Of a stretch of DNA of 64,000 nucleotides, positions 28,595 to 58,051 are shown one piece after another (positions within the stretch are counted from its first letter, which is position 1; every line of letters starts with the position of its first letter). Source of the DNA: Gammaproteobacteria bacterium (GTDB taxonomy: Bacteria; Pseudomonadota; Gammaproteobacteria; SZUA-229); NCBI GenBank assembly GCA_024636785.1, contig JAGXGK010000017.1, positions 42,284 to 106,283 of the forward strand. Reading direction: 5' to 3'. The notes under the pieces are model-generated. The model made no database searches, was not told where the DNA came from, and was given only the letters and a program-made list of their open reading frames with translations. Position numbers and translations under genes: made by a program.

Positions 28595-30465
<1,871 letters not shown>

Positions 30466-30473
<8 letters not shown>

Positions 30474-33047: not shown

Positions 33048-33057
33048 GGAGTATTTT

Positions 33058-33336: not shown

Positions 33337-33339
33337 GGC

Positions 33340-34110: not shown

Positions 34111-34113
34111 CGC

Positions 34114-35682
34114 GTGCTGCAGCAACTGCTCGATGACACCATGACCCGCCTGCACGAGGTAATCGAGAGCAGTGCCCCTGCTCTGCATACGCGTGAAACC
34201 GGCACGGTGCTGTCTGTGGGTGGGGGCATCGCCCGCGTCAGTGGCTTGCCCAGCCTCACCTCGGAAGAACTGGTGCAGTTCCCGGACGGGGTGCTGGGCG
34301 TGGCTATTAACCTTGAGGCCGATGTCGCCGGGATAATGCTGCTTGGCGATAGTGCCAGACTGTCGGCGGGCATTGAAGTCAGCGCCACCGGCCGCGAGGC
34401 CGACACCCCGGTTGGTGAAGGGCTGCTGGGGCGGGTGATCGATGCCACCGGAAAGGTGCTGGATCACGGCAAAGCCCTGCAATTCAGTGAACGCCGACCG
34501 GTGGAACGCCCGGCGCCCGCCATCATCGACCGCTCGCCGGTGACGGTACCGCTGGAAACCGGCATCAAGGCCATCGACGCTCTCATTCCCATCGGTCGCG
34601 GCCAGCGTGAACTCATCGTCGGCGACCGCCAGACCGGCAAAACCTCGGTGGCGGTCGACACCATCATTAATCAGCGTGACAAAAACGTCATATGCATCTA
34701 CTGCGCCATCGGCCAGCGCGGCACTGCGGTCTCCCGGGTAGTGGAGACGCTACGCAAACACAAAGCGCTGGCGCACACCATCGTGGTGGTCGCCTCGGAT
34801 GAAGACCCGCCCGGCCTGCGCTTCATCACCCCCTATGCCGCCACCACCATGGCCGAATATTTTATGGAACAGGGGCGCGATACGCTAATTGTTTATGACG
34901 ACCTCACCCGCCATGCCCGGGCCTATCGTGAACTATCCCTGCTGCTGCGTCGACCACCGGGGCGCGAGGCTTATCCGGGTGATATTTTCTACATTCATTC
35001 GCGTCTGCTGGAACGCGCCACTCACCTGCGCGACGGCGGCTCGCTGACCGCGTTACCGGTGATCGAAACACAGGCCCAGGACATCTCCGCCTACATCCCG
35101 ACTAATCTGATCTCCATTACCGATGGCCAGATCTATCTTTCACCGGCGTTGTTTCACAAAGGCCTGTTGCCCGCGATTGACGTCGGCAAATCGGTATCTC
35201 GGGTCGGCGGCAAAACGCAGTACCCGGCATTTCGCAGTGTCTCCGGCGATCTACGCCTCTCGTATTCACAGTTCGAAGAGCTGGAAACCTTCGCGCGCTT
35301 CGCCACCCGCATGGATGAAGATACGCGCCGAACAATCGAACACGGTCGACGCGTACGCGAAGTGCTGAAACAGCGCGAACATCATCCACTGCGCGCTAGC
35401 GAACAGATGGCGATACTCAAAACGCTCAATGCCGGAATGCTTGATAACCTGCCTCTGGAGCAGATCGCTAAAGCTGAAATGAAAATTCAGCAACGCATCG
35501 TCAATGAATTTCCCGAGCTTTGTGAAAGCATGGAAAAGGGTGAAAAACTGGATGATGCACAATGGCAGCCGCTACTGGAAATCGCCGAGAAGATACTGTC
35601 TGAAATGCGCGACGACGCTGAAAAACCTGAACAATCCGGCCCATCTGAAAGCGCTGATCAAAGCGAAGCTGCGCAGGAATAA
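34114..35682 (+). CDS. atpA: F1 alpha subunit
   Basis: Walker A GDRQTGKT, 522 aa. GTG start. Confidence 0.93.
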
Positions 35683-35685
35683 AGT

Positions 35686-36579
35686 ATGGAATCACTCGAC
35701 CAATTGCACAAACAACTCGACAGCCTCAACGAATTGCGCACCATCGTCAAAACCATGAAAGCCCTCTCGGCGGCGAGTATCAATCAATACGAGCAGGCGG
35801 TTAATGCACTCGCCGGTTATTATCAAACAGTGGCACGTGGCCTGCACGTGGTAATGAGAGACATGGAATCGGCACCTCCCCCAACTGCGCATACCGACAA
35901 GCCCCGGCGACTGGCCGCCATCGTTTTAGGTTCCGACCACGGACTCTGCGGCCGCTTCAACGAAGACATTGCCAGCTATGCGCTGGACAGCATGAACTCA
36001 ACCACTGCCGAACCAGAAAACCGCCTCATCCTCGCAGTGGGCGCCCGCGTTGCGTCCAGTCTGGAAAGCAATGGTCAGGCCATCGAAGAAAATTTCCTTG
36101 TCCCCGGCTCGGCCGAACAGATCACCGCCAGCGTGCAGCAGATCCTGCTTAAAATCGATGAATGGCGCGAACAGTCCGGAATGGAGCATGTCTACCTGTT
36201 CTACAATCGTCATTCCGGTGGCAGCAGTTACCAGTCTACTGGTTTTAAATTACTGCCAATCGACCTGCGCAATTTTCATCGCCTTAAAGAAGAACACTGG
36301 CCCTCACGCAGCCTGCCCACCTTCAGCATGAACCGCGAACAGCTACTTAGCCGCCTGCTGCATCAGTATCTTTTCGTTTCGATCTTCCGCGCCAGTGCCG
36401 AATCTCAGGCCAGTGAACACGCCAGCCGATTGGCGGCGATGCAATCGGCACAGCGTAATCTCGATGAACGACTGGGTGAAGTCACCATGGTGTTCCGACG
36501 TGCCCGACAAAACGCTATCACCTCCGAGTTGCTGGACGTTGTCTCCGGTTTTGAAGCACTGACCGGAATTGAAAAATAG
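35686..36579 (+). CDS. atpG: F1 gamma subunit
   Basis: 297 aa; conserved C-terminal helix AITSELLDVVSG. Confidence 0.85.
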   Translation: MESLDQLHKQLDSLNELRTIVKTMKALSAASINQYEQAVNALAGYYQTVARGLHVVMRDMESAPPPTAHTDKPRRLAAIVLGSDHGLCGRFNEDIASYALDSMNSTTAEPENRLILAVGARVASSLESNGQAIEENFLVPGSAEQITASVQQILLKIDEWREQSGMEHVYLFYNRHSGGSSYQSTGFKLLPIDLRNFHRLKEEHWPSRSLPTFSMNREQLLSRLLHQYLFVSIFRASAESQASEHASRLAAMQSAQRNLDERLGEVTMVFRRARQNAITSELLDVVSGFEALTGIEK

Positions 36580-36930: not shown

Positions 36931-37104
36931 TTAGCGCTCTCTAAGTTTATGTATTGCTTTGCGCAGAAAAGCAATCTGTTTATTGTAATTAGAGCAGCCA
37001 GAACAAATGAACAGGTGAAAGCGCAGGCGAATACGTTCAGGCAGAGATAATTCCCGATCCTGTGACTGCGACACCAGGCGGGTCGCCTGTTTACAATTCA
37101 TCAT
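36931..37104 (-). CDS. zf-HC2 type anti-sigma factor (57 aa, below ORF-track threshold)
   Basis: Manual translation gives MMNCKQATRLVSQSQDRELSLPERIRLRFHLFICSGCSNYNKQIAFLRKAIHKLRER, with the H-x3-C-x2-C motif. Its start overlaps the stop of the ECF sigma gene (ATGATGA). Confidence 0.55.
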   Translation of the reverse strand: MMNCKQATRLVSQSQDRELSLPERIRLRFHLFICSGCSNYNKQIAFLRKAIHKLRER

Positions 37105-37694
37105 GAAAGCCGCCCTCCCCGTATATAGTTATTTTCCAGACATTTTCGTAGCTGCGAGCGTGCGCGGTGCATGATCACCCAGGCATTGCTGTCGCTCAGA
37201 TTAAGCTCCCTGCACACCTCCTTAAGCTCAAGCCCGAGGTGTTCCCGCATCATAAATACACGGGAGGTATTAGCAGGCAGATGATTAAGGCAGATTTCAA
37301 AAATGACCCAGAACTGTTCATTATCGAAATTTTTTTCCGGTTGTCCCCAGTCAGAGGGCTTGTGGGTTTTTTTCCAGTGGTCTCTGCCATCAAACGCCTC
37401 ATCATCGTTGTCGTTATCTTCGATAAAAGATTCCGTCGGGTAGCGACTGCGTTCGCGGATAACATCAATAATTTTGTTCCGCAGTATGGCAAACACCCAG
37501 CTCTTAAGGCTGCCCCGGCCATTGAATTTTGCTGTTGAGATAGCAGCACTAATGGCTTCATGGACAATGTCCTCTGCCAGCACTGCATCGCGCAACTGCA
37601 AGGTGGTAAAGCGCAGCATCTCTTCCCTCATTGATGCAACCTGTTCGGCATCAACATAACCGGAATGCGAAGCGTGTACTGCGTTCTTATCCAA
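37101..37694 (-). CDS. ECF-subfamily RNA polymerase sigma-70 factor
   Basis: Region 2 (AEDIVHEAISAAISTAKFNGRGSLKSWVFAILRNKIID) and region 4 (LKEVCRELNLSDSNAWVIMHRARSQLRK). Confidence 0.85.
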   Translation of the reverse strand: MDKNAVHASHSGYVDAEQVASMREEMLRFTTLQLRDAVLAEDIVHEAISAAISTAKFNGRGSLKSWVFAILRNKIIDVIRERSRYPTESFIEDNDNDDEAFDGRDHWKKTHKPSDWGQPEKNFDNEQFWVIFEICLNHLPANTSRVFMMREHLGLELKEVCRELNLSDSNAWVIMHRARSQLRKCLENNYIRGGRLS

Positions 37695-37792
37695 AATAAC
37701 TACCTTATAGAATTAATGATTTAATATAAGGTAGCCTTTATCCGCAAAACAGTAAAGCTCGATTCTTGATACAGCCTGTAAACTTTCTCCAG

Positions 37793-38392
37793 CTAAGTCT
37801 TTAACCAGCGATTTTTAAACCAGTAGTCGATAGAGAGATAACGCCCCGCGCCATAGAAGAACAACACCAGCAGCATGATGAAATAGGTGGCCGCGAACTC
37901 GATGCCATTATTGAGCATAACAAGACTGCCATGCTCTGTTAGCCAGCTGTAATTACCGTGCTCTCTTAAAATTTCTTTGGCGACATCAAGACGTTCGATT
38001 GCGGCGACAGTGCGATCATTGGCGAAAAGACTGCCTGAGCCTTCCGCGATGGCCAGCCAGCCGTTTTTCCAGTGCACCGTAAACATAGCCACCAGCATCG
38101 TTACCATCAGCGGAATCGTTATCCAGCGAACAGCCAGCCCGACGAGCAATAATATGGCACCGCCCGATTCCGTCAGGGCCGCAGCCCAGGCCATAATTTC
38201 AGGAAACGGCAGACCGAGACCCCAGTCCGGATTGCCGAACCATTCAATGGTGGAATCCATATTAGCCAGTTTTTTGGTTCCCGCCGTCCAGAATATCGGC
38301 ACCAGATACAGTCGTAATGCCAGCGGCGCGAGAAAATCAGCCGATTTTGTGATGTTCAGTATTTCATATAATTTGTTAAATGTCCGTTTCAT
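37793..38392 (-). CDS. DoxX-family membrane protein (HvfX-like RiPP-metallophore partner)
   Basis: 199 aa, DoxX-like TM helices (LRLYLVPIFWTAGTKK...). Sits directly downstream of the HvfA-like precursor. Confidence 0.65.
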   Translation of the reverse strand: MKRTFNKLYEILNITKSADFLAPLALRLYLVPIFWTAGTKKLANMDSTIEWFGNPDWGLGLPFPEIMAWAAALTESGGAILLLVGLAVRWITIPLMVTMLVAMFTVHWKNGWLAIAEGSGSLFANDRTVAAIERLDVAKEILREHGNYSWLTEHGSLVMLNNGIEFAATYFIMLLVLFFYGAGRYLSIDYWFKNRWLKT

Positions 38393-38465
38393 AATAGCCC
38401 TTGTTACTTTGATTATTTGCCATTAATAAACCGTCCCTGGTCATAACTGATGGGAGATTAAATAC

Positions 38466-38789
38466 TTAGCTGGCTCCGCCGCACTTGCCTTCCTGCACTT
38501 TGGGTTTGCCCTCAGCTTTATCACCGCCGCACTTGCCTTCAGCTTCTTTAGCATCTTTCGACTCGCCGCATTTACCTTCTGCATCCTTCGTCTTGCCGGC
38601 AGCCGCTTTATCGCCACACTTGCCTTCGCCACATTTACCTTCGTTTACCGCCACTTGATAGCCGCCGGAGAGACTGGTCATGCCGAAGGGATTGCTGTCA
38701 GCAGCCAGTACCGAAACACTGGCCATGCCCATTACGAGTGCGGCGCCACTAGCCAGAGAAAGGGTTTTGATGTTTTTGATGGTATTCAT
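38466..38789 (-). CDS. HvfA-like secreted RiPP metallophore precursor (bufferin-type) with five EGKCG repeats
   Basis: Sec signal peptide, then NEGKCGEGKCGDK...AEGKCGESK...AEGKCGGDK...QEGKCGGAS. RBS GGAG. Confidence 0.7.
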   Translation of the reverse strand: MNTIKNIKTLSLASGAALVMGMASVSVLAADSNPFGMTSLSGGYQVAVNEGKCGEGKCGDKAAAGKTKDAEGKCGESKDAKEAEGKCGGDKAEGKPKVQEGKCGGAS

Positions 38790-39343
38790 AATTATGCTCC
38801 AATATCTTTAAAATAAAATTCAGGGTTATCTGTTCAATTTTAATGAACATGCATAGTAGTCGCTGCTGAGCCGATTTCCTTACAACTTTCTTGAAATTAA
38901 TTTCATCCGCAATTGCTGTAACCGTGGTAATACTTTCTGGTGAAGCTTTTTCCAGGCATCAAATCTTCAAATACGAAATGGAATGACTGATATTTTTTAA
39001 TGCCCGATCTACGCCACCATAGCCTCGTGCCTCGCTCATCTAAACCCGAATAACCCCATTAAGTCTGTAGCAAGGAGATCTAAATGGCGTGTGATGCTGG
39101 CAAACAATATCGCCGGCACAAAAGATTTAAAGCGATTCGATTTCATAATCTCTCGCCGGGTTTCTGGCACGGGCGGGAGGCGGCACCTTGGCGCTAGCAC
39201 TCTGGTCAGGGTGCAGGCACCGAAACAACCTTACAGGGACTGCTTGGTCGCGTGTCATGAACTGCGAGCCACTGACCTCTATTGAATGGTTATTTGGATC
39301 AACTGATAATTCCCGGTTGGGTTGAAAAATGGCTGTGATTTAT

Positions 39344-39503
39344 ACCCGAATCCGTGGCTTAAACGTGGATGCATGATGCAAGATATTGGCTTCACAGTGG
39401 CTTCAGAAAACTCAGCTTCACCCTTAGGTTAAGCGGGCATTTTTGATCTGCTGTGGAGCCAGGAGCTTGTGCCAGGCGCCATGGTTAAGCCACAGATTCA
39501 TAT
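39344..39503. mobile_element. MITE-like element, family 2 (termini CCCGAATCCGTGGCTTAAAC / GTTAAGCCACAGATTC)
   Basis: About 85% similar to segments of 57698-57930. Abuts the stop of the RibD_C gene. Confidence 0.55.
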
Positions 39504-39505
39504 AC

Positions 39506-40375: not shown

Positions 40376-40681
40376 ATTACTTTCAATGAAGACTGAAAGT
40401 CTGAAAGACTGAATAAATCCCGCTGATTAAATTAAATCCCTTTGTAGAAACGTGAACATTAAATGAAAATATTTTTAGAGCAAGCATCATTTGGTTAGCA
40501 CCATATACTAAATGTTATTGTGATTTTAGAGATTATATTTAGCTTTGAAGTACAAAGAATTGTAATTCATCAATGGTTTTATGTACAAGATATATACCTC
40601 AAATGAAAAAAATAATTTCAATAGAAATAATATCGTTATACATAGGAAATCAGTATATTGAGTTCATCAAAATACGTAAAA

Positions 40682-40695
40682 TTGATAATTTTCAA
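40682..40695. promoter_or_regulatory. FNR/FixK-type box TTGAT-AATT-TTCAA
   Basis: About 80 bp upstream of ORF 40771 in an AT-rich intergenic region. Confidence 0.45.
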
Positions 40696-40770
40696 TGATT
40701 GATATGCGCACTATGATTAGGCTAAAAATATAAATAATTATTTAAATAAATAATTTATATAAGGATTATC

Positions 40771-41322
40771 ATGTCAATCATTAATACCAGTTCTATCTAT
40801 TTTAAAAGTTTATTATTACTGAGCGCTATGATGCTTGTGCTCACAACTATTGACGCTATATCCGAACAGACGAAAAGCAAACAATCAACTAACGACGACG
40901 TTGAAGCACAGAAAATGAAGAAGGAGTGGTCGGAGGCGATTGAAACTCTTAAGCAATATTCCGCCACTCAACGTGATGAAGCGCTTTCACAGGCGCAACA
41001 AACACTGACGGCGATGGATAGACGTATTGAACAATTACAAACACGCGCTGAAAAAGAATGGCGGTCAATGAGTAAAAATATGCGCGAACGTCATGAAGAA
41101 ACCTTACGAAACTTAAGGCGGGAGCGCAACGGACTGGCCGAATGGTATGGCGGCATGAAATACAGCTCAGACAACGCCTGGGAGGAAGTTAAGCAGGGAT
41201 TTATCACTGCATATGGCTCACTCAGCGACTCTTCTGGTAGAGCATATTCTGAATTTTCCAAATCGAATAATAAAGATCGCAGTAAAAAGGGTGATAAGAA
41301 AAAAGACAATAGAAACCAATGA
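40771..41322 (+). CDS. Secreted coiled-coil protein with Lys-rich C-terminus (function unknown)
   Basis: Signal/TM segment followed by a charged helical region. An FNR-type box lies upstream. Confidence 0.4.
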   Translation: MSIINTSSIYFKSLLLLSAMMLVLTTIDAISEQTKSKQSTNDDVEAQKMKKEWSEAIETLKQYSATQRDEALSQAQQTLTAMDRRIEQLQTRAEKEWRSMSKNMRERHEETLRNLRRERNGLAEWYGGMKYSSDNAWEEVKQGFITAYGSLSDSSGRAYSEFSKSNNKDRSKKGDKKKDNRNQ

Positions 41323-41452: not shown

Positions 41453-42031
41453 ATGACAGAACACCAACTCCCCGAACTACCGTATGCTGAAAATGCACTT
41501 GAACCACACATCTCGGCGGAAACGATACAATATCATTACGGCAAGCATCACGCGACTTATGTGGAAAAATTAAATACGCTGATAAAAAACACGGAATTCG
41601 AATCCTCCACACTGGAGGAGATAATCAAGGGTGCATCCGGCGGTATATTTAACAACGCCGCTCAGGTCTGGAATCACAGCTTTTACTGGAACTGTATGAG
41701 TCCTGATGGTAGTGGTAAAGCTGAAGGTGATCTGGCTGCGGCTATCAATGACACTTTCAATAGTTTCGACGAATTCAAAAATAAATTTGCCGAATCCGCT
41801 ACCGGTAATTTTGGTTCCGGCTGGACCTGGCTGGTAAAAAATTCTGATGGCCGACTGGAGATTGTCAACACCAGCAATGCGGGAAATCCGATAACCGAAG
41901 GCCAGCAACCCCTGCTCACTTGTGATGTCTGGGAACATGCTTATTATATTGATTACCGAAACGCACGCCCCAAATATCTTGATGCCTTCTGGCAGCTTGT
42001 AAACTGGGATTTTGTCGCGAAAAACTTTTGA
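41453..42031 (+). CDS. sodB: Fe-type superoxide dismutase
   Basis: [27 protein letters not shown] and [14 protein letters not shown] (Fe-SOD signature). Confidence 0.93.
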
Positions 42032-42078: not shown

Positions 42079-42444
42079 ATGCAGGACACTAGAAAGATTG
42101 TCGAGAATCCGGATCTTCCCAGTCCAAAACGCGCAGATCGCGAAGTCGATCTGAAAAACTGGAATGAAGATCAGGGACGGCGTAATGCTAAAGAGGAAGG
42201 CGTTGAGATGACAGATGCGCACTGGGAAATCATTTATTTCCTGCGTGACTACTATCTCGAGCATGGCCCGGTTGAAAATGCACGAGAGCTCAGTGATGCA
42301 TTGAATAACCAGTTTGTGGATAAAGGTGGACGAAAATACTTACGTCAACTGTTCCCGCAAGGTCCGGTTGGACAAGGCATGCGTATCGCCGGCCTGAAAG
42401 CACCGCCATTGACAGAAGGTGACGGTTTCGGCGTTAGCTACTGA
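42079..42444 (+). CDS. DsrC/TusE-family protein lacking both conserved C-terminal cysteines
   Basis: DsrE/DsrC fold signature (RELSDALNNQF...YLRQLFPQGPVGQGMRIAGLKAPP) but the C-terminus is ...LTEGDGFGVSY with no Cys. Confidence 0.7.
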   Translation: MQDTRKIVENPDLPSPKRADREVDLKNWNEDQGRRNAKEEGVEMTDAHWEIIYFLRDYYLEHGPVENARELSDALNNQFVDKGGRKYLRQLFPQGPVGQGMRIAGLKAPPLTEGDGFGVSY

Positions 42445-46198: not shown

Positions 46199-46304
46199 AG
46201 CATTTAAAAGCTTAAGTCCACCGGTATACCCTTAATTATTTAAATGCATCCTAATACAACTTACTGTTTATATTTCAGCTCACAATTATTGAAATAATGA
46301 AAAA

Positions 46305-46318
46305 TTGATAAATTTCAA
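46305..46318. promoter_or_regulatory. FNR/FixK-type box TTGAT-AAAT-TTCAA
   Basis: Exact reverse complement of the box at 48802-48815. About 45 bp upstream of ORF 46361. Confidence 0.45.
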
Positions 46319-46360
46319 TGCGCTGTTACATGCTACAGCATTAAGCTTTTTTTAAGAAGC

Positions 46361-46597
46361 ATGAACAGGAGAATCGCAATGAGAACCCCACATTTTGTAA
46401 CATCTATACGCCCATCAAATATTTTCTGGCTACTGGTATTGATGATTATTATGCTATTGGTATCGAGCAATGCACTGTCAGCCAACAGCTTTTCAGGTAC
46501 CGGGATCAACGATCATATAAATAATGAGTTAACGCCCGATCCTGCAGTACTTTTTAATACCCTGGACAAAGCATTGTTAAGCTCAGCGTCATGGTGA
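46361..46597 (+). CDS. Small membrane/secreted hypothetical protein
   Basis: TM helix FWLLVLMIIMLLVSS; preceded by an FNR-type box. Confidence 0.3.
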   Translation: MNRRIAMRTPHFVTSIRPSNIFWLLVLMIIMLLVSSNALSANSFSGTGINDHINNELTPDPAVLFNTLDKALLSSASW

Positions 46598-46908: not shown

Positions 46909-47661
46909 ATGTTAGGAAAAGTCAATGATATTACAGGTTATGTTCTCGACACTAAGGACGGTGAATTTGGTCAATGCCATGATTTTCTGTTCGATGATCG
47001 TAACTGGACCATCCGCTATGCAGTGGTTAAAACTGCAAAATGGTTGCCGGGGCAGAAGGTGCTTATTTCTCCAGTTTTTCTGGGGAGTCCGGACTGGGTC
47101 AACCAGAGCATTCCGGTCAACCTGACGCGCCGTCAGATTGAAGAAAGTCCAACGCTGGAAGAACACGCGCCGGTCTCCCTGCAGTACGAAATTGATAATC
47201 ACGAATATTACGCTCTGCCGTTTTACTGGGTGAACCAGAATATGTGGCAGGCCAGGCCCGATTCAGCGGGTGTGATACATCCGGTTGTCGAACCGGAGCT
47301 ACCGGATGTGGATGAAATTGAAGCACAGGAAGGTCATCTGCGCTCAACTGAAGAGGTTAAAGGATATCGCATCATTGCCGGCGATGGCCCGGTTGGCCAC
47401 GTTGATGACTTTGTCATCGATGATATCAATTGGGTATTGCGTTATCTGGTGGTGGATACCCGCAACTGGTTGCCCGGTCGTAAGGTACTGGTGTCACCGG
47501 ACTGGATCGAATCGGTGCATTGGGTGGATAAAGATGTGCATCTTAATATCGACAGCGAGGTATTAAAAAACAGTCCTGAGTTTGATCTTTCACAACCGAT
47601 CAGCCGCAACTATGAGATCAAGCTTTATGACTTTTACGGACATCCATATTACTGGAGTTAA
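46909..47661 (+). CDS. Tandem PRC-barrel domain protein
   Basis: Two repeats of the PRC-barrel pattern (..DFLFDDRNWTIRYAVV.. and ..DFVIDDINWVLRYLVVD..). Confidence 0.75.
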   Translation: MLGKVNDITGYVLDTKDGEFGQCHDFLFDDRNWTIRYAVVKTAKWLPGQKVLISPVFLGSPDWVNQSIPVNLTRRQIEESPTLEEHAPVSLQYEIDNHEYYALPFYWVNQNMWQARPDSAGVIHPVVEPELPDVDEIEAQEGHLRSTEEVKGYRIIAGDGPVGHVDDFVIDDINWVLRYLVVDTRNWLPGRKVLVSPDWIESVHWVDKDVHLNIDSEVLKNSPEFDLSQPISRNYEIKLYDFYGHPYYWS

Positions 47662-47823: not shown

Positions 47824-48327
47824 TTAACGTTGCCAGTAAACCCGCAAGATGCCAGCTTGATCGGTATACTGAATATCAAGATCGCCTTCATAGGCGCTGG
47901 CAATGGCTTCACCGACACCTCGTGGCAGATGCATGTCGGTAAAAGTAATGAGCGTTGAGCCATCATTCTGAGTTTCGGCATCCATAAGCCGTTTCATGGG
48001 GTGCTGGGCTTTTTGCGCTTCCACTTTATTGTGAACGAGATGCATAATCTCATCGTGATGTTGATCGAAAAATTCACCGCTTAAGGTCAGGTAACCTGCG
48101 GGTACTTTATCGTGAATACGCTGACACGCCGGGCACAATTGTTGGTTAGCATCCGCCGGTACTTCCGGTAGCCATTGCCAGCGACCACTGTTGAACACCA
48201 CGCCGCATTCCGGACACAGTGTTGGCTCAACCAGCTTGCCTCGTGCCATATAGGGGTCATGCACCTCCTCTTCCATCAGTCGATCATGTCGACCATGCTT
48301 TGCTACATCTCCGCTTTTCCAGGTCAT
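47824..48327 (-). CDS. Zinc-ribbon (CPEC..CPAC) hypothetical protein
   Basis: 167 aa; C-x2-C-x23-C-x2-C near the N-terminus; no family assignment made. Confidence 0.45.
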   Translation of the reverse strand: MTWKSGDVAKHGRHDRLMEEEVHDPYMARGKLVEPTLCPECGVVFNSGRWQWLPEVPADANQQLCPACQRIHDKVPAGYLTLSGEFFDQHHDEIMHLVHNKVEAQKAQHPMKRLMDAETQNDGSTLITFTDMHLPRGVGEAIASAYEGDLDIQYTDQAGILRVYWQR

Positions 48328-48390: not shown

Positions 48391-48711
48391 TCATGGAATG
48401 ATATTGCGTGGATGACCGACATACTGGCCGGCTGCCACATCATTACGGTCGGCTTTTACCCGACATTGCGGTTTACCCGTCGCTATATCGAAGCTATTCC
48501 GCCAGTGAAACGGCTGAAGATTTTCCAGATCCTCGCCTCCGCCAGGCACAACAATTAATATGCTCCAGCCATAATCAGAATGGCTATTATTGTACTGATC
48601 ACGAAGCAACCACGCCCCGCATTGATCCTGTCGCCACTCCAGAGAATTTCGATTCGACATGACACGTGCTTTTTCCCATACTGCCTGTATGGCTTTATCA
48701 CTAAATATCAT
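48391..48711 (-). CDS. Small protein with degenerate HNH-like motif
   Basis: ...VVPGGGEDLENLQPFHWRNS resembles the HNH GG...NLQ..C..CN motif but lacks the catalytic DH. Confidence 0.35.
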   Translation of the reverse strand: MIFSDKAIQAVWEKARVMSNRNSLEWRQDQCGAWLLRDQYNNSHSDYGWSILIVVPGGGEDLENLQPFHWRNSFDIATGKPQCRVKADRNDVAAGQYVGHPRNIIP

Positions 48712-48801
48712 TATTTTTTTCCTGCAGATAGCTTGTTTAAATAAAATTATTGCACTGAAAAAAGATTAACAATATCAGACCTGAAGATTTGGCGACAAGC
48801 A

Positions 48802-48815
48802 TTGAAATTTATCAA
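48802..48815. promoter_or_regulatory. FNR/FixK-type box TTGAA-ATTT-ATCAA (perfect consensus)
   Basis: Lies between divergent genes 48711(-) and 48990(+). It is the reverse complement of the box at 46305. Confidence 0.5.
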
Positions 48816-48989
48816 TGACATAATCTGACGTAGTTCTAAGATATTAACATTAACAGGAAAAAACCATGCCCACATTAAAAGCTATCGAAATACTCTCTCC
48901 ATCGAATAAGAACCGGGAAGATGCTGCTGAGCTTGCGGTTAATATAAAAATTAGCAATAGTTTAGTAAGCTGAGCTGAGAGATAAAATT

Positions 48990-49304
48990 ATGTCAAAAGA
49001 TATCGATCCAATAGTTGATAGCTGGTACTGCCATCTCGATAAAGGCCAGCAATTTTTCGTAGCCGCTGTGGATGAGCATGCTCACACGGTTGAAACTCAG
49101 AATTTCGACGGTACGCTGGAAGAATATGATCTGGACATCTGGTATCAGCTTGATGTGGAACCGTGTGAAGCACCGGAAAGCTGGTCCGGTGCGGATGATG
49201 TCGGCAACGTTGACGACTACGGCACCGAAGTCACAGACACCGATCCCAAAGACTGGGATGAACCCGCCGAACAGTTCGCGCCTAAATATACCCGCTTTAA
49301 ATAG
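48990..49304 (+). CDS. Acidic hypothetical protein
   Basis: 104 aa, highly acidic (D/E-rich). Good RBS GAGAGATAAAATT-ATG. Confidence 0.4.
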   Translation: MSKDIDPIVDSWYCHLDKGQQFFVAAVDEHAHTVETQNFDGTLEEYDLDIWYQLDVEPCEAPESWSGADDVGNVDDYGTEVTDTDPKDWDEPAEQFAPKYTRFK

Positions 49305-49336
49305 GTGACTTGCGGGATCTATGAGATAAGTACGTT

Positions 49337-49476
49337 CACCGCAGAGGCGCAGAGGAAATAATGTTTTTAGTACAAACAATTCAGAATGCTATAGTGCCGA
49401 AATTAGTGCCTTATAATCAACAACGTAGTTATAAATCTGATTTGGTTTTTCTCTGCGTCTCCGCGCCTCTGCGGTT
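49337..49476. mobile_element. MITE-like element (TIR ACCGCAGAGGCGCAGAGGAAA / TTTCTCTGCG..CCTCTGCGGT)
   Basis: Inverted termini with an AT-rich core. The internal ...TTTGGTTTTTCTCTGCG junction is shared with the 60838-61158 element. Confidence 0.55.
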
Positions 49477-49501: not shown

Positions 49502-49774
49502 TTAAACATTACGGTGACATAAAATCAGCTGTTCGCCCCACTGCTGCAACAACTGATCACGCACTGCCTGCTTATCCTTGCTCTGAATCAGCAGATCATG
49601 GTCTACATATAGATTGGTAGTCATCCAGCCTTCGTCCACCGGGCATTCTACCTGAATCAGCCATTCACCATCCTGCGGTTCGACTTCAAACAGATAGGCG
49701 CGTAATCCCAGAATATCAAATAACTCATTGGCAACCTCTCTGGCGGCGGCCAGTTGTGCTGTAGATACATTCAT
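49502..49774 (-). CDS. Hypothetical protein
   Basis: 90-aa ORF with no recognised motifs. Confidence 0.35.
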   Translation of the reverse strand: MNVSTAQLAAAREVANELFDILGLRAYLFEVEPQDGEWLIQVECPVDEGWMTTNLYVDHDLLIQSKDKQAVRDQLLQQWGEQLILCHRNV

Positions 49775-49909
49775 TTTTTTTCCTGCTAATTATATTGACA
49801 GCTTACGCATTGCCGGCCGCTTGATCATTGCGATTTTTCAATGCCTCAATTACGATGCTTGATCAAGATATGAAAGAATAGATCTGCAAACAACTGGAGC
49901 CTGAGATAA

Positions 49910-50554
49910 ATGTTAAGAGAGACACCCACCCTTATTCGTGCCGTGCTGTTAGATTTTGGTGGCGTTATCGCCGAGGAAGGGTTTCAGCAGGGCTTGCGAG
50001 CGCTGGCTGAAGCGCAGCAGCTTGATCCCGATGAAATCATTAATGAGGGCCGTGAAGCGGTACACGATTGCGGTTATGTCACAGGCTCGGGTACTGAAGC
50101 TGATTTCTGGACATTGCTGCGCGAACGTACCGGTCTCATCGGTGAAGACAAGGAGCTGAGTCAGGCGATTCTGGATCGATTCATTGTGCGCCAGTGGATG
50201 ATCGAACAGGTGGCGCACCTGCGAAATTCCGGACTCACTGTCGCAATATTAAGCGACCAGACCGACTGGCTGGATTATCTGGACCAGCAGTTACATTTCA
50301 GCCCGGCTTTCGACCGGGTGTTCAACAGCTTCCATATGGGCAAGAGTAAACGTGATGCCACTGTGTTTGATGATGCTGTACAAATGCTGGGCGTACAGCC
50401 CGGTGAAGCCCTGTTTGTTGACGACGACGCCGGACACGTCGAACGCGCTCAAGAACGCGGATTGTACGCGATTCATTTTACTGAGCGTGACGTATTCGAA
50501 GCACAATTACTGTCACTGACAGGTGAGTCGACGGTAACCGAACAATCTGAATAA
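49910..50554 (+). CDS. HAD-superfamily hydrolase
   Basis: Motif I VLLDFGGVI and motif IV FVDDD. Confidence 0.75.
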   Translation: MLRETPTLIRAVLLDFGGVIAEEGFQQGLRALAEAQQLDPDEIINEGREAVHDCGYVTGSGTEADFWTLLRERTGLIGEDKELSQAILDRFIVRQWMIEQVAHLRNSGLTVAILSDQTDWLDYLDQQLHFSPAFDRVFNSFHMGKSKRDATVFDDAVQMLGVQPGEALFVDDDAGHVERAQERGLYAIHFTERDVFEAQLLSLTGESTVTEQSE

Positions 50555-52009: not shown

Positions 52010-52030
52010 ATAAAGTTAATCGGCTATGCA

Positions 52031-52044
52031 TTGATATTTTTCAA
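52031..52044. promoter_or_regulatory. FNR/FixK-type box TTGAT-ATTT-TTCAA
   Basis: Lies in a 375-bp non-coding stretch between the patatin gene and the DUF2892 gene. Confidence 0.4.
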
Positions 52045-52383
52045 TGCCGACAGGTGTAAACGTGTACAGACTCAGACAATGCTTTCTTTTGAAATCAATC
52101 TGTTGTTTTCAATAACGCAAAGGAATAAACCCTTAACAAGAGCCGGGAGATTATCACAGAACCCGAAATAATTGCGCGAAAGGATGAAGAGACAATGCTT
52201 TTTTGCCTGCAAATTCCTGGCGGCGACAGTAATCACTGATCGGATTTTATCCAACCAGCAACTCAAATGAAAAGACGGATACTTTATTTATTTTAATAAA
52301 GCGTGCACTGACAAGGACAGAAATGAATTTGACATGCCTTATGGCAGACATCTAAACATACATCTTAATGAGGAGAAAAACCA

Positions 52384-52602
52384 ATGAAATGTAACGTAGG
52401 CGGAATAGACATGGCTGCGCGTCTGATTATCGGCGCAGTTTTATTAATCGCAGCATTCACGGTAACAATGAGCTCGCTATGGCAGACAGTAATCCTGGTG
52501 ATTGCAGCTATCGCACTGGTCTCAGGTATAATTCGTTTTTGCCCGCTTAATGCATTATTGGGCTTCAATACCTGTACTGCCAAAAAACAGACCTTCGAGT
52601 AA
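52384..52602 (+). CDS. DUF2892 (YgaP C-terminal-like) small membrane protein
   Basis: 72 aa, two TM helices, conserved RFCPLN motif. Confidence 0.5.
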   Translation: MKCNVGGIDMAARLIIGAVLLIAAFTVTMSSLWQTVILVIAAIALVSGIIRFCPLNALLGFNTCTAKKQTFE

Positions 52603-52916: not shown

Positions 52917-53627
52917 TTAATATCCTGCCACTCTCTGTAACACCTGTGTGTCAAGCTGATATAATTCCGGAGTCAGTCCGTTATTCATTCTGTGCAGGAC
53001 ATCGTCGCGTTTGAACTCTGCAAGAATTCGACTCACGCTTTCGGGCGTAACACCGAGGATATCGGCCATTTCATGCACGGTTAAAAGATCAACCAGAGCT
53101 GATGATTCACCATATTCAATCTCCGAAAGAAAATTAATGAGGCGTGCAACTCGAGGTTTTATCGCTCCGGTGGAAAACTCAGAGATCCACATATCCGCCT
53201 GACAGAGGCATTCATACAGCTTCTCGATAAACTGGAAATAATGCTGTGGATCGTGATGTTTCAAAGCATGAAAACGGCTTACCGGAATACTGTACATTTC
53301 CACCTCACCGATAGCAATGGCAGTATGTTCACAGGGCTGATTCAATAATCCACCCAGACCAATCCAGGCCCCCTTGCCATGTAGCCGCACAATTCTCGCT
53401 CTACCATTAGGCAGGTGGCTTAGCAATTTGACCAGACCATTACGTATAATATACACCGTATCTGAGCGATCACTTTCGCAATAGATGATTTCCTTGGCCG
53501 CAAGTAATTTCTGTTTACAGGGCCCTATCAGGCCGGGAAGCTCGAATGCGCCTAAAGCATGCTCAGTGGGGATTGTTTCAAGCCATTGCTTCTGGTTAGT
53601 GCTCTCTATGGATTCAAACTTTAACAT
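52917..53627 (-). CDS. fixK: Crp/Fnr-family transcriptional regulator, FixK-type (no N-terminal Fe-S cysteine cluster)
   Basis: cNMP-binding beta-roll and C-terminal HTH (ETVHEMADILGVTPESVSRIL). Lacks the FNR Cys cluster. Confidence 0.8.
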   Translation of the reverse strand: MLKFESIESTNQKQWLETIPTEHALGAFELPGLIGPCKQKLLAAKEIIYCESDRSDTVYIIRNGLVKLLSHLPNGRARIVRLHGKGAWIGLGGLLNQPCEHTAIAIGEVEMYSIPVSRFHALKHHDPQHYFQFIEKLYECLCQADMWISEFSTGAIKPRVARLINFLSEIEYGESSALVDLLTVHEMADILGVTPESVSRILAEFKRDDVLHRMNNGLTPELYQLDTQVLQRVAGY

Positions 53628-53685
53628 TGGATCATTTCCTGCACATTAATATTTAGCCCGGATCAACCGAACACATTCATCTGCA

Positions 53686-53874
53686 TCAAATTGCATTCTT
53701 TTCCTGTTCGGCAGCTAGCCAGTCCTCCAGCTCATATCCCGGCTCAAACCCACGATCATGTGCACGATAGTAAGCTGCTATAGCAATGTCTGATTCCCGC
53801 GCCTCATCACTATATACAGGCGGTAGAATATCCTGAGTTACTTTATTGGGTAGCTGCGTCTTGTTCTTAGACAT
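53686..53874 (-). CDS. DUF2934 family small protein
   Basis: IAIAAYYRAHDRGFEPGYELEDWLAAE motif. Confidence 0.5.
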   Translation of the reverse strand: MSKNKTQLPNKVTQDILPPVYSDEARESDIAIAAYYRAHDRGFEPGYELEDWLAAEQEKNAI

Positions 53875-54053
53875 TTGATAACCTCTAGTTTTAAACTCTA
53901 TTTGTAATGTTTTCCGAAAACGGACTTAAAAACTTAACATCTAAATGAAATTAAGTGGCAACATAAATACACTTTAACGACCTTATCAACGACAAGATAT
54001 TGGTACTGATACTAAGTAGAGATACGTAGAAAACAACGATATAATCAGGCAAA

Positions 54054-54659
54054 TCAGATTTTGCAAAGACCGGCCACGCTGACCAGCTCAGCAATATTAG
54101 ATACCCCCATTTTATGCATGACATGGATGCGATGAACTTCAACCGTACGCGGACTCAGTTGCAGTTTATGAGCAATTTCCTTGTTAAGCAATCCGGACAC
54201 GACCAGCACCATCACCTCGCGCTCCCGCGGGCTGAGTCGGCTATAGGATTGTCGGCTGGCTTGTATGTGAAGCTGCATTTCGCGACGCCCCTCATCATTC
54301 ATCAGTGCGCGTTGCAGTCGTTTAATCAGTTTAGCCCCCGATATCGGCTTTTCCAGAAAATCTATCGCCCCGAGCTGCATGGCACGCACTGCCATGGAGA
54401 TGTCACCGTAACCGCTTAGAAAAATAACGGGTATTTGCAGCCCGCGTTCATTCATTGTTGTCAGCACCTCATGGCCGTTCATCCCCGGCATGGCCATATC
54501 CAGTAACACACAGCCGGGGTTTTGATACTCACAGGCCTGTAGAAAAGTACTGCCATCTGCGAATACTTCTGTATTCATGCCATTATTTTCCAGCAACAAT
54601 GACAATGCATCACGCATGGCGGCATCATCATCGACGATAAAAACATCATGAATCATCAC
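54054..54659 (-). CDS. fixJ: FixJ/NarL-family response regulator (REC + LuxR HTH)
   Basis: VFIVDDDAAMRDAL receiver; LSPREREVMVLVVSGLLNKEIA HTH. ATGA overlap with the upstream kinase gene. Confidence 0.88.
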   Translation of the reverse strand: MMIHDVFIVDDDAAMRDALSLLLENNGMNTEVFADGSTFLQACEYQNPGCVLLDMAMPGMNGHEVLTTMNERGLQIPVIFLSGYGDISMAVRAMQLGAIDFLEKPISGAKLIKRLQRALMNDEGRREMQLHIQASRQSYSRLSPREREVMVLVVSGLLNKEIAHKLQLSPRTVEVHRIHVMHKMGVSNIAELVSVAGLCKI

Positions 54660-55930
54660 GCCGGCAATAACCAGAAGTGAACTATGCCACCGGGAACACT
54701 CGGTTCAATCCAGAGACGACCGCCATGTGCCTCAATCAGACTGTGGCTGATCAGCAACCCCACGCCCAGGCCATGTTCTTTAGTGCTGGCTGATGGCTCG
54801 AAAATTGCGCTTGCTTTCTCGGCGTCAATGCCCGGGCCGCTATCGAAGACACTAACAAGAACCCGGTTTTTCCGCCGACGTGTTGTCACTGTTATCTTCC
54901 CTTCCGGCATTGCCGTGTCCTGTATCGCCTCAATGGCGTTGCGCAATAAATTTGACAGTACCTGATCTATATGAACGTCATCAGCTATTACTTCCGGTAT
55001 GCTTTTATCAACGTTTGTCTCTATTTCAATGCCATTTTTGCGCGCGCCGGTTGCCATTACCATAGCCGTGCGTTCGACAACTGCATTTAAATCAAGGGGG
55101 ACAAGTGTGATCACGCCCCTGCTTATAAATGCACGCAGACGGCGGATAATCTTTCCAGCACGTTCCGACTGCTCGCTAACCTGCTTCAGCACTGTATTCA
55201 GCTGAGTCGTCGCCGACGGTGACTCCATCAGCAGCTGCTGACTACTCTCGACGAACATGGTGATGGCAGCCAACGGCTGATTGAGTTCATGCGCAAGCAG
55301 TGTCGTGAGTTCGTTAGCCGGTTGTAACCTTTGCAGACGTGAGGCTATTTCAAGTTGCTTACGCGCATCCAGCTCAGCGCGACGCTGTAGGGTAATATCA
55401 ATACCCGTCATAATGAAATAGAGCGCTTTATCGTTAGCGTCTTTCAAAACCGTTGTTGTCCAGCTGAGATTTCTTTTAGATCCATCTGCATTTAACCAGT
55501 GATTTTCATGAGCTATTGCTTGTTCATCGTCTCTTAGGCGATCAAAAACGCTTTCGGTTAACGCTCTATCTTCAGTAGATACCAGTTTCCACCAATGTGT
55601 AGTACCGATAAATTTCTCAAAATCATGACCTGTAATCGCTTCACAGGACTTGCTGAAGCGAATCAGACGTTGATCGGCATCTATAACAACAATCGGTGTT
55701 GCTGCAATATCCATAATCGCATCGTTGAATTGGCGCTGCTGCTGAAGCTGCTGATTACGCGCAGCGACATGCTGTTTAAGGTTAGTGAGATCATTGCGTA
55801 AACAAGCGTTTGTATTATTTAATGCAAGATTTATAGAATGCGCCTTCTCCATAATAATTTCCGGAGAATTATTACTCGGCTGGGTCAGTCGCACTTCTTT
55901 AGTCATGTAAATAACCTCAAATTTTATCAA
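54656..55930 (-). CDS. fixL: PAS-domain sensor histidine kinase (FixL-like)
   Basis: PAS (IMDIAATPIVVIDADQRLIRFSKSCEAITG), H-box LAHELNQPLAAI, HATPase_c G-boxes. Alternative start at 55906. Confidence 0.8.
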   Translation of the reverse strand: MIKFEVIYMTKEVRLTQPSNNSPEIIMEKAHSINLALNNTNACLRNDLTNLKQHVAARNQQLQQQRQFNDAIMDIAATPIVVIDADQRLIRFSKSCEAITGHDFEKFIGTTHWWKLVSTEDRALTESVFDRLRDDEQAIAHENHWLNADGSKRNLSWTTTVLKDANDKALYFIMTGIDITLQRRAELDARKQLEIASRLQRLQPANELTTLLAHELNQPLAAITMFVESSQQLLMESPSATTQLNTVLKQVSEQSERAGKIIRRLRAFISRGVITLVPLDLNAVVERTAMVMATGARKNGIEIETNVDKSIPEVIADDVHIDQVLSNLLRNAIEAIQDTAMPEGKITVTTRRRKNRVLVSVFDSGPGIDAEKASAIFEPSASTKEHGLGVGLLISHSLIEAHGGRLWIEPSVPGGIVHFWLLPA

Positions 55931-55992
55931 CGATTACAAATAACCGGAAAAGATACTCTCTAACTTTACTGATTTATAAGTAATTTACAAAA

Positions 55993-56006
55993 TTAACAAA
56001 AATCAA
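55993..56006. promoter_or_regulatory. FNR/FixK-type box TTAAC-AAAA-ATCAA (weaker left half-site)
   Basis: Centre about 70 bp upstream of the fixL start. Confidence 0.35.
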
Positions 56007-56260
56007 TGACATTAAAATGAAAATGTTTTTTATCCAGTTAGTTTCATCATACAGACTGAACCGGTATTAATTGCATATAGATAACACAGGATATATCTGT
56101 GAAGTATATACGTAAAATAACCTTATTCAAAAAGGACTTAATAACTATACAGTTATTACTGTATTGAAAAAACGCAATGCAGTTTCAAGCGTTACTCACT
56201 AACATGATACTAATTCCTGATGTTTTTTAACCATGTAAGCATGCTAATTATTAATAATTA

Positions 56261-56785
56261 ATGAAGTCTGTTATGAAAAAAGAATCTCATCCATACAAGG
56301 TGGCGGCAATATATCCGGATCTCGAAGAAGCTGAGGCGATCGTAATGGTGCTGGTGGATTCAAAGATTGATGATATTGACATTGTACAGCTCGCACCGGG
56401 CGCGAAAGATACCGGACTGGCGATCGAGCAGGAAACAGAAGCCATACGTGACACAGTAGCCAGAGATGCCGGCATAGGTAGTATTGCCGGCAATGCTGCG
56501 GGTGCAGCAGCAGGTGGAACAGCTGCACTTGTGGCATCATCGCTTTTTATCAGTGCGCCTATTGTAGGCCCTCTGGTCATACTCGGGTACGGCACTCTCA
56601 TCGGCGGCATCGTCGGGGCAATACGAGGACTGAGAATACGCGAAGGCCAGTTAGCAGGTCTGGTCAAAGACGCATTGGATGCCGGCTATTATGCGGTGGT
56701 TGTACATGCGGCAGACGAACAGGGCCGAGATCGATCACAGGAATTAATCAATCTCAGCATGGCCGAAAAGACGGCACATACCTGA
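56261..56785 (+). CDS. Glycine-zipper stress-protein-like membrane-associated protein (YflT/DUF1269-like is a guess)
   Basis: Central Gly/Ala-rich segment GNAAGAAAGGTAALVASSLFISAPIVGPLVILGYGTLIGGIVGAI flanked by acidic soluble regions. Confidence 0.4.
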   Translation: MKSVMKKESHPYKVAAIYPDLEEAEAIVMVLVDSKIDDIDIVQLAPGAKDTGLAIEQETEAIRDTVARDAGIGSIAGNAAGAAAGGTAALVASSLFISAPIVGPLVILGYGTLIGGIVGAIRGLRIREGQLAGLVKDALDAGYYAVVVHAADEQGRDRSQELINLSMAEKTAHT

Positions 56786-57697: not shown

Positions 57698-57930
57698 TTA
57701 ACCTGAATCCGTGGCTTAACCGCGGCGCCTGGCACATGCTCTTGATTGTTCACCACATCCATGTGGTTCACCCCTGCGGGGCTGACGCGCCAAATCGCTC
57801 CTGGCGATTTGGTCCACAGCGGATCAAAAAATGCCCGCTTAACCTATGGGTAAAGCTAAGATTTTTTGATCCGCTGTGAAACCAATATCTTGCACCATGC
57901 ATCCACGTTTAAACCACGGTTTCAGGTTTA
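57698..57930. mobile_element. MITE-like element, family 2 (TIR TTAACCTGAATCCGTGGCTTAACC / GGTTTAAACCACGGTTTCAGGTTTA) with internal palindrome
   Basis: About 24-bp TIRs. Internal inverted repeat CACAGCGGATCAAAAAAT..ATTTTTTGATCCGCTGTG. Related copy at 39344-39503. Confidence 0.55.
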
Positions 57931-58051
57931 AGATAGATCTCATTATGCACAGATGGTCAAAATAAACGATATTCAAGTGTCTGGCAGTCCGGCTTTTACA
58001 TGAACAAAACAACTGATGACAAATCAATATCTTGCGGTTTCTGCGACTGGC

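Follow-up and report, generated by a model that had tools for sequence, protein, structure and literature searches.

A candidate Crp/Fnr-governed survival regulon with an extended FNR-type operator in a gammaproteobacterial genome

Background

The lxa locus of Burkholderia cenocepacia is a 50-gene island that is switched on by low oxygen and required for survival under anoxia. A TGA-N6-TCA motif recurs at 17 points between its genes. Its products include a cation ATPase and an acetate kinase, and it comprises three adjacent regulatory genes, namely BCAM0287 (CRP/FNR), BCAM0288 (response regulator) and BCAM0289 (sensor kinase); functional classes such as the cation ATPase are shared with the mycobacterial DosR regulon (PMC3721108). 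Its regulator has been proposed, not demonstrated (PMC12071387; PMC4505428), and BCAM0287 keeps the cysteine cluster of FNR (PMC4505428). The lxa locus is the closest known system to the one described here, which lies in a 64,000-nucleotide stretch (hereafter the window) of contig JAGXGK010000017.1 of an uncultured gammaproteobacterium (assembly GCA_024636785.1) and in which genes for a PAS histidine kinase, a FixJ-like response regulator and a Crp/Fnr-family regulator are accompanied by a series of palindromic promoter boxes.

With moderate confidence, this arrangement is read as a three-tier transcriptional cascade switching on a stress or dormancy survival regulon. At the first tier, the soluble PAS kinase would sense a cytoplasmic signal, other than oxygen bound to a FixL-type haem, and would phosphorylate the FixJ-like regulator. 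The phosphorylated regulator, judging from conserved cis-elements, would then bind CTACGTA-N3-CTACTTAGTA and raise the synthesis of the Crp/Fnr-family activator. At the third and best-supported tier, a dimer of this activator would bind CATTGA-N6-TCAATG at about -40 in at least eight promoter regions. The target genes would be those for tal, acetate kinase and phosphoketolase, a Na+-type N-ATPase, an sll1863-like protein, a superoxide dismutase (SOD) and a DsrC-like protein, together with small proteins including a member of the BCAM0308 family.

The regulatory genes and their products

Four genes, all on the minus strand, form the regulatory region at 52917-55906:

54656-55906, minus strand: soluble PAS histidine kinase, 416 amino acids (aa), start at ATG 55906 (Pfam and NCBIfam)
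54054-54659, minus strand: response regulator of the FixJ/StyR/TtrR type, 201 aa, Response_reg (REC) and GerE helix-turn-helix domains (Pfam, NCBIfam and similarity to BjFixJ)
53686-53874, minus strand: small protein of the DUF2934 family, 62 aa, whose gene heads the crp transcription unit (PF11154, 43 bits; kept in the related loci L002, L003 and L004)
52917-53627, minus strand: Crp/Fnr-family regulator, 236 aa, cNMP_binding and HTH_Crp_2 domains (Pfam and family alignment)

Pfam domains confirmed the kinase, the FixJ-like regulator and the Crp/Fnr gene of the first-pass annotation, from which the DUF2934 gene, located between the response regulator and Crp genes, was absent. The mechanical open reading frame (ORF) of the kinase opens at TTG 55930, while its orthologues have 416-418 aa. 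Its Pfam domains are PAS_3/PAS_4, HisKA and HATPase_c, and the protein is built of an N-terminal coiled coil (a long helix), a single PAS_3-type PAS domain, HisKA with a HELNQPL H-box and HATPase_c, with no membrane segment. The kinase stop and the response regulator start are joined by a GTGATG overlap (GTGA or TGATG), an arrangement of translational coupling, and not by the ATGA initially reported.

As for family assignment, FixL and FixJ ranked among the best-scoring NCBIfam models for the kinase and the response regulator. The kinase obtained 188 bits with FixL (NF041777; cut-off 850) and an equally good 199 bits with AtoS, and the response regulator 202 bits with FixJ (NF006900; cut-off 255) and 193 bits with TtrR. 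For the Crp/Fnr protein, the top model was LdrP (54 bits vs. a cut-off of 300), followed by Caulobacter FixK (NF050806; 44 vs. 300). Judged by these scores, the three proteins appear to be relatives of FixL, FixJ and FixK that stand outside those families. The response regulator, with its REC and GerE domains, has BjFixJ (5xso, E 1e-44) as its best match in the PDB and FixJ as its nearest characterised relative.

The palindromic boxes

The boxes had initially been described as seven copies of TTGAT-N4-ATCAA (TTGATNNNNATCAA), of which the 64-kb window holds no exact match. The seven sites do exist, as degenerate copies with one mismatch (28496, 40682, 46305, 48802 and 52031) or two (28116 and 55993), and a motif is indeed enriched, but it was mis-described and the list was incomplete. 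The core TTGA-N6-TCAA occurs six times in the window vs. 1.27 expected from whole-window shuffles. All six copies fall in the intergenic DNA (9.7 kb, i.e. 15% of the window, at 40% GC), for which a first-order Markov model of that DNA predicts 0.38; none of 1500 simulations reached six, and base composition does not account for the boxes. Every site carries TCAAtg on one side, and most carry caTTGA on the other, around an A/T-rich spacer. These shared flanks therefore define the element as an 18-bp palindrome, CATTGA-N6-TCAATG, perfect copies of which number four vs. 0.0013 expected. Independently, a generic repeat finder returned the boxes as its top repeat family (D1).

A position weight matrix (PWM; threshold of 9) added two sites to the initial list, at 49826-49843 and 56162-56179, both with a TTGC half-site, which is permitted in the FixK2 box TTG(A/C)-N6-(T/G)CAA (PMC5582078). 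Strong boxes score 20-29 vs. 11.2 for the site at 55993, the weakest. The resulting set comprises eight strong boxes and one weak site, seven of which, including the weak one, are inside an 18-kb island with the three regulatory genes. No strand is assigned to them:

28114-28131: box CATTGAAAAACGTCAATG, upstream of tal, whose start is probably M24 at 28010
28494-28511: box CATTGAAAAATATCAATG, centre 92 nt upstream of atpD, with which the N-ATPase operon begins (28595-36579, plus strand)
40680-40697: box AATTGATAATTTTCAATG, centre 82 nt upstream of the operon for sll1863-family (40771-41322), Fe-Mn SOD (41453-42031) and DsrC-TusE-like (42079-42444) proteins
46303-46320: box AATTGATAAATTTCAATG, centre 67 nt upstream of a 72-aa membrane protein gene (46379-46597, plus strand)
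48800-48817: box CATTGAAATTTATCAATG, in a divergent promoter region
49826-49843: variant box CATTGCGATTTTTCAATG, between a 90-aa gene (49502-49774, minus strand) and a HAD hydrolase gene (49910-50554, plus strand)
52029-52046: box CATTGATATTTTTCAATG, 20 nt past the patatin stop codon and 340 nt upstream of a YgaP-like membrane protein gene (52384-52602, plus strand)
56162-56179: variant box TATTGAAAAAACGCAATG, centre 90 nt upstream of a 174-aa glycine-rich membrane protein gene (56261-56785, plus strand)
55991-56008: weak box-like site AATTAACAAAAATCAATG, PWM 11.2, with only the CATTGAT half-site conserved

Three sets of candidates were rejected. Six of the 11 one-mismatch matches (14494, 21120, 26192, 50022, 53676 and 55670) have no TTGA/TCAA core and a PWM score below 9, and the one at 53676 is not kept in relatives. 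Terminators or RNA hairpins were discarded as an identity for the boxes: no T-run follows 52031, none of the boxes is among the terminator-like sites, and all but 52031 lie upstream of genes. The LuxR/HapR-type (TetR-family) box was also set aside, the spacing of its consensus being 8 nt.

Box centres are found 58-112 nt upstream of start codons (the tal start being taken as Met24), with the exception of 52031 at 340 nt. Hexamers resembling a -10 box follow at 20-23 nt, and two promoter-like matches overlap the right half-site of a box, one of these being at 40680. Such an arrangement would correspond to the geometry of class II activation by Crp/Fnr proteins. A generic promoter scan found 40 promoter-like sites vs. 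35 in shuffles, which is not above chance, and single matches are therefore merely supportive.

The weak site at 55991-56008 had been presented as a box upstream of the fixL-like gene. It actually lies at about +31 to +48, downstream of the conserved promoter of the kinase, which is predicted as follows:

56041-56101, minus strand: conserved block of about 60 nt ending in an extended -10 (TGTATGAT), kept in four genomes; probable promoter of the kinase-regulator operon

The genes behind the boxes

On the minus strand, the tal cluster (22454-28079) comprises tal, a flavodoxin-like quinone reductase gene, and the acetate kinase and phosphoketolase (XFP) genes, with a 198-nt gap before ackA. It is possibly one box-controlled unit providing a complete route from sugar phosphate to acetate and ATP. 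The N-ATPase operon counts nine genes, its alternate F1F0 alpha and c subunits scoring above cut-off. Leftward of the box at 48800 are a 106-aa gene (48391-48711, minus strand) and the gene of a 167-aa BCAM0308-family protein (47824-48327, minus strand; NCBIfam equivalog, 204 bits vs. a cut-off of 100), and rightward is a DUF6763 gene (48990-49304, plus strand). At that place, a 128-aa minus-strand ORF (48993-49379), although the longest there, is spurious, the real gene being the overlapping plus-strand DUF6763 gene of 104 aa, as called in a relative. Farther downstream of the box at 46303 is a PRC-barrel gene (46909-47661).

Between the box at 52029 and the YgaP-like gene, 52047-52383 holds no convincing ORF in its 340 nt, and the 150 nt next to the gene are kept in L002 and L004. 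An Rfam scan of 26-58 kb (E<=0.1) returned nothing, so that this leader is not a known RNA; a long leader sequence and a small RNA not yet described are both conceivable.

Conservation of the boxes in related loci

Related loci were fetched by protein identity and similarity. Their Crp/Fnr proteins are 91% (L002 and L003), 77% (L004) and 54% (L011, Marinobacter salinus, BKP64_04215) identical to that of the window. In L002, L003 and L004, the boxes hold their position while the surrounding intergenic DNA has diverged, as observed for the patatin/YgaP, HAD/90-aa, 174-aa and 106-aa boxes. Thus, the box at 49826 is kept in position in L002 (15742) and is identical in L004 (14295), and the box at 52029 is found at 12759 in L002 and 6849 in L004; 20 nt downstream of it, the window, L002 and L004 all carry a TAnnGA -10-like hexamer. 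For the box at 56162, the column is shared by the window, L002 and L003, and L004 has a perfect palindrome there. The two directions of the 48800 box stand apart in L002, with one box each. The first-pass annotation was right in placing FNR/FixK-class boxes ahead of tal, the N-ATPase, the SOD operon and the genes for small proteins, and boxes are kept in position in relatives; L005, too, has an SOD gene with a box.

The same boxes accompany the regulator subfamily in seven other lineages, including M. salinus, with or without the two-component system. In distant loci outside the PWM set, promoter regions carry the extended palindrome, with five copies in L010, five in L011 and two in L009 (a metagenome contig of 64% GC), where 0.02 or fewer are expected; L013 has three (scanned, no simulation). 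These distant boxes precede genes for tal, GAPDH, a PEP-synthase-like enzyme, trehalose-phosphate phosphatase, DUF502, a phosphoribosyltransferase, ribonucleotide reductase, isoamylase and dodecin and, in some of the loci, the regulator gene itself.

Boxes are present in L005, L010 and L011, in whose fetched loci no kinase/regulator gene was found. L012, where a sigma factor gene in place of crp accompanies the kinase and regulator genes, has none. The boxes hence track the Crp/Fnr gene and not the two-component system. The cascade is also less self-contained than first described: two of the boxes are 12 kb beyond the island, and the regulon persists in relatives that have no two-component system.

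A probable link between the two-component system and the crp gene

The order kinase-regulator-crp is kept in L002, L003 and L013, while L004 and L009 keep the regulator without the kinase. In L004 (2050-3180), where the kinase gene is absent, the response regulator comes directly after the conserved promoter block, as an orphan regulator. In L012 (7001-10052), a kinase orthologue (48% identical) and a response regulator are followed by a full-length gene of the sigma-70 family, and neighbouring genes encode a ribosome hibernation factor, DnaK/DnaJ and a PolX-type polymerase. One and the same input module seems to feed into different master regulators.

The 179-nt spacer between the response regulator and DUF2934 genes is more conserved than the flanking coding DNA, and contains two elements:

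54010-54029, minus strand: element CTACGTA-N3-CTACTTAGTA, at about -76 to -57, or some 65 nt ahead of the start predicted for the DUF2934-crp transcript
53960-53989, minus strand: predicted sigma-70 promoter of DUF2934-crp (TTGATA, 18 nt, TATGTT), in a block conserved in four genomes

The first element is a single copy in the window, is invariant in the window, L002, L003 and L004, and recurs letter for letter between the regulator and Crp genes of L013 (59% GC; kinase 52% identical). Related forms, CTACGGA-N6-CTACCTAGGTA and CTACTTAGGTA, are found ahead of the Crp gene in L009 and L010. The element is kept across genomes of 45% to 59% GC and is likely the binding site of the response regulator. 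It is reasonable, though indirect, to suppose that the FixJ-like regulator drives crp transcription as FixJ drives fixK, and the cascade architecture is supported by this conserved element upstream of the Crp gene.

An alternative is that the two-component system and the Crp/Fnr gene are independent neighbours, the latter's product sensing its own ligand through its cNMP-like domain and regulating its own gene, and the kinase-regulator pair controlling something else. Many family members lack a kinase/regulator in the fetched locus and have a box ahead of their own gene (L005 at 7573, L011 at 9794), the residues His83 and His101 and the beta-roll are strongly conserved, and the pair adjoins a sigma factor gene in L012. 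However, the order of the three genes recurs in at least three lineages, the spacer before crp outconserves the adjoining coding DNA and shares its regulator-site element with a lineage of 59% GC, and there is no conserved box ahead of crp in the lineage of the window. We therefore regard such independence as unlikely.

The Crp/Fnr subfamily

The ESVSR(I/V)L recognition helix is nearly invariant in an alignment of 121 family members. An E--SR signature separates the FNR/FixK class from the CRP class. The regulator, called FixK-type in the first-pass annotation, carries this signature, and its score with the FixK model of NCBIfam is below cut-off. The epithet Cys-less is literally wrong, with five Cys present; all five positions are variable across the family, the N-terminal cluster of FNR is absent and the protein has, as in the FixK subgroup, a Crp/Fnr fold devoid of a Cys cluster. 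Since no Cys is conserved, an FNR-type iron-sulfur cluster is excluded. His101 is invariant, His83 nearly so and the beta-roll strongly conserved, and such an effector domain may leave room for a ligand or haem. By sequence, the nearest solved structures are Thermus TTHB099 (LdrP; 5i2d, E 6e-12) and SdrP (2zcw, E 4e-5), and FixK2 is not among the PDB matches at E<=1e-3.

A search with the regulator returned 574 clusters at E<=1e-10, from uncultured and cultured Gammaproteobacteria and one Nitrosomonas metagenome-assembled genome (MAG). Literature searches retrieved no described member or regulon of it, their coverage being incomplete and a prior description possible. Tentatively, and with slightly more doubt than confidence, we propose that it is a widespread undescribed subfamily having its own extended operator, CATTGA-N6-TCAATG, and governing a conserved programme for surviving growth arrest. 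This programme would consist of storage-carbon mobilisation (glycogen and trehalose enzymes, tal, GAPDH, the PEP-synthase-like enzyme, phosphoketolase and acetate kinase), ATP-driven ion pumps and many small proteins. In some lineages a PAS kinase devoid of haem and a FixJ-like regulator would have come to stand above it. The whole would be the counterpart, among environmental bacteria, of the lxa regulon of Burkholderia and the DosR regulon of mycobacteria.

The boxes might also be sites of a global FNR/ANR-type regulator encoded elsewhere, the local Crp/Fnr gene being just one member of its regulon. TTGA-N6-TCAA is the generic core of FNR, ANR and FixK sites (PMC5582078; PMC3721108), and a window of only 64 kb makes a second regulator possible. 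Nevertheless, the CA...TG flanks and the A/T-rich spacer are kept wherever the subfamily is encoded, in hosts of 41% to 64% GC, and the boxes are grouped no more than a few kb from the regulator gene, being ahead of that very gene in L005 and L011, which makes a global regulator quite unlikely.

The kinase PAS domain and oxygen

The kinase had been taken for a FixL-like component of a microaerobic cascade. Its core is indeed of the FixL type, resembling that of BjFixL in YF1 (PDB 4gcz, E 6e-46), with the H-box HELNQPLAAI common to both. An AF2 model of the kinase (pLDDT of about 90 across the PAS domain), searched against the PDB with Foldseek, had the same YF1-type chimeras as top matches and returned PAS-kinase architectures alone (YF1, ThkA, phytochromes), with no clue to a cofactor.

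Searched alone against PDB sequences, the PAS domain matched no FixL, DosP or other haem-PAS chain even at E<=10, whereas the control query, the PAS domain of BjFixL (checked to be 100% identical to PDB entries), found RmFixL (1e-37) and DosP (1e-11). Its best match was the PAS domain of a diguanylate cyclase (8px4, E 0.001), which is uninformative. When a profile of 107 PAS sequences was compared with the BjFixL PAS using hhalign, the proximal His200 stood opposite a non-conserved Thr, at an alignment probability of just 38%. With neither the FixL proximal His nor any similarity to haem-PAS domains, oxygen sensing by the kinase is not supported: its PAS domain does not appear to be a FixL-type haem sensor of O2, which answers half of the refuting condition set by the first-pass annotation, a PAS domain from a non-O2-sensing family. 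Separately, an HENHW motif (two His and one Trp) is conserved in the PAS family, in the G-beta strand (kinase residues of about 124-130) where FixL has Arg220, and might bind a ligand or a metal.

A genuine FixL-FixJ-FixK oxygen cascade, in which a haem-binding PAS domain turns the kinase on at low O2, would agree with the kinase core and regulator being closest to BjFixL and BjFixJ among solved structures, with the FixK-class box and helix, and with a gene content like that of the low-oxygen lxa locus. The variable Thr facing His200 (at that same low alignment probability), the failure to retrieve haem-PAS chains that the control finds easily, and a FixL score of 188 bits against a cut-off of 850 all count against it, and we hold it to be very improbable.

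Lastly, it is hardly conceivable that the palindromes are bound by the GerE-type response regulator itself in a DosR-like design, even though NarL/FixJ-family regulators also bind inverted repeats and DosR-type dormancy regulons are so built (PMC12071387), given that boxes occur where no regulator gene is nearby (L005, L010 and L011), that L012 with its kinase-regulator pair and no crp has none, and that half-site and 6-nt spacing are exactly those of the FNR/FixK class, matching the E--SR helix.

Possible trigger of the proposed cascade and points of weakness

The boxed genes, in the window and in relatives, would fit the survival of growth arrest upon failure of respiration: they cover the breakdown of storage carbohydrate, the pentose/phosphoketolase route to acetyl phosphate and ATP, ATP-driven pumps for Na+ and cations, SOD and small conserved proteins. 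By analogy with lxa, the trigger of the three-tier cascade would most likely be energy or oxygen limitation, with growth arrest, although this is its least certain point. As a guess from gene content and the analogy with lxa only, the microaerobic control originally suggested is plausible. Salt, desiccation or oxidative stress fit parts of the gene content equally well.

Several points weigh against the cascade as proposed. All its steps are predicted from sequence. Any protein of the FNR/ANR/Dnr class encoded elsewhere in the genome could bind TTGA-N6-TCAA. L004 has no kinase and many relatives have no two-component system, and therefore the kinase input is dispensable or lineage-specific. 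The conserved effector domain, with its invariant His101, may sense a ligand, beyond a control through abundance. SOD and the neighbouring thiol peroxidase gene, for which no box was found, suit oxidative stress as well as hypoxia, and no universal stress protein, the family that is the hallmark of lxa, was found among the window ORFs scanned. Finally, L006-L008, which are family members with 52-57% identity, have no box within the DNA at hand and constitute an unexplained exception.

Repeats and other genes of the window

The low-GC island with the regulators and most boxes extends from a RibD_C gene (39506) to the thiol peroxidase gene (57603). It is flanked by inverted copies of a repeat of 165-235 nt (39340-39505 and 57700-57935), 86% identical over 119 nt, the right copy having a 66-nt insert. 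With terminal inverted repeats at both ends of either copy (GAATCYGTGGCTTAA...TTAAGCCACRGATTC), this repeat looks like a MITE (miniature inverted-repeat transposable element); no further copies were found in the window or in related loci. The flanking repeats may mark the island as mobile or invertible. Two REP-like intergenic elements also form inverted pairs, at 28205-28242/52623-52660 (CCCTCTCCC...GGGGTGAGG type) and, for a 71-nt partner, at 28333-28403/52792-52862. In each pair, one member is near the tal/atpD boxes and the other adjoins the Crp/Fnr gene.

Elsewhere, 37101-38789 (minus strand) encodes a 107-aa protein with repeated KCGE/GKCG, matching the precursor of the oxazolone/thioamide RiPP metallophore HvfA (NF050137, 31 bits vs. 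a cut-off of 19.5); genes for DoxX and an ECF sigma factor adjoin it. At 1788-3379 (minus strand), the gene of a HipA-family toxin kinase (422 aa) is overlapped at its start by a 108-aa ORF immediately upstream, the two making up a probable HipBA toxin-antitoxin pair.

Comparison with known systems

Like the lxa locus, the window holds an island of stress and survival genes with FNR-like inverted repeats at many intergenic points, and a local CRP/FNR gene beside a two-component pair, the likeness here being one of gene type and adjacency. Shared families are the BCAM0308 family, the cation P-type ATPase and acetate kinase, to which a BON protein is added in the relative L002. The differences are several. 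BCAM0287 has the FNR cysteine cluster while the regulator of the window has no conserved Cys; no universal stress protein, alpha-crystallin or PHA genes were seen in the window (ORFs being scanned for the first two); the boxed genes here are those for N-ATPase, SOD, tal and phosphoketolase; and the motif has conserved CA/TG flanks. Low-oxygen induction has been shown for lxa and is a conjecture for the present locus.

The FixL-FixJ-FixK systems of rhizobia and Caulobacter, e.g. the Bradyrhizobium FixLJ-FixK2, follow the same succession of a PAS kinase, a REC and GerE regulator, a Crp/Fnr protein devoid of a Cys cluster and TTG(A/C)-N6-(T/G)CAA sites at about -40 (PMC5582078), and BjFixL and BjFixJ are the best structural-sequence matches of the kinase core and the regulator. 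In contrast, the PAS domain of the window has no haem-ligand His and its regulator is no FixK orthologue, and the targets are stress, ion-pump and fermentation genes instead of cbb3 oxidase, nitrogen-fixation or denitrification genes. In neighbourhoods resembling FixLJ-FixK, the haem ligand should thus be checked before they are read as oxygen sensors. As in the mycobacterial DosS/DosT-DosR system, where a sensor kinase and a LuxR-type regulator turn on a regulon for surviving growth arrest (PMC12071387), a sensor kinase is paired with a regulator of that type; DosR, however, binds target promoters directly, while the window system would have an extra Crp/Fnr tier, and the DosS/DosT sensors are haem-GAF proteins vs. 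a PAS protein here.

The Crp-family stress activators SdrP and LdrP (TTHB099) of Thermus thermophilus, the nearest solved structures of the window regulator, are only distantly similar to it (see the LdrP score of 54 bits vs. 300 above). The abundance of SdrP rises in stationary phase and under stress, which matches the abundance mode proposed for the window regulator. SdrP works without a known effector, and no two-component input to SdrP or LdrP is known.

If correct, the proposed cascade would provide a defined operator, regulator and input module for a survival regulon found from uncultured sulfur- or nitrogen-cycling Gammaproteobacteria to the culturable Marinobacter, with M. salinus as culturable entry point. 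It would place about ten conserved small proteins without annotation in a regulatory context, and would connect the system, at the level of sequence, with lxa, a clinically studied locus for which the regulator is only predicted. The design, from two-component system through Crp/Fnr protein to FNR-type box, is a textbook one, i.e. the plan of FixLJ-FixK and lxa built from paralogous parts; the parts that differ are the haem-less sensor, the uncharacterised Crp/Fnr subfamily and the extended operator.

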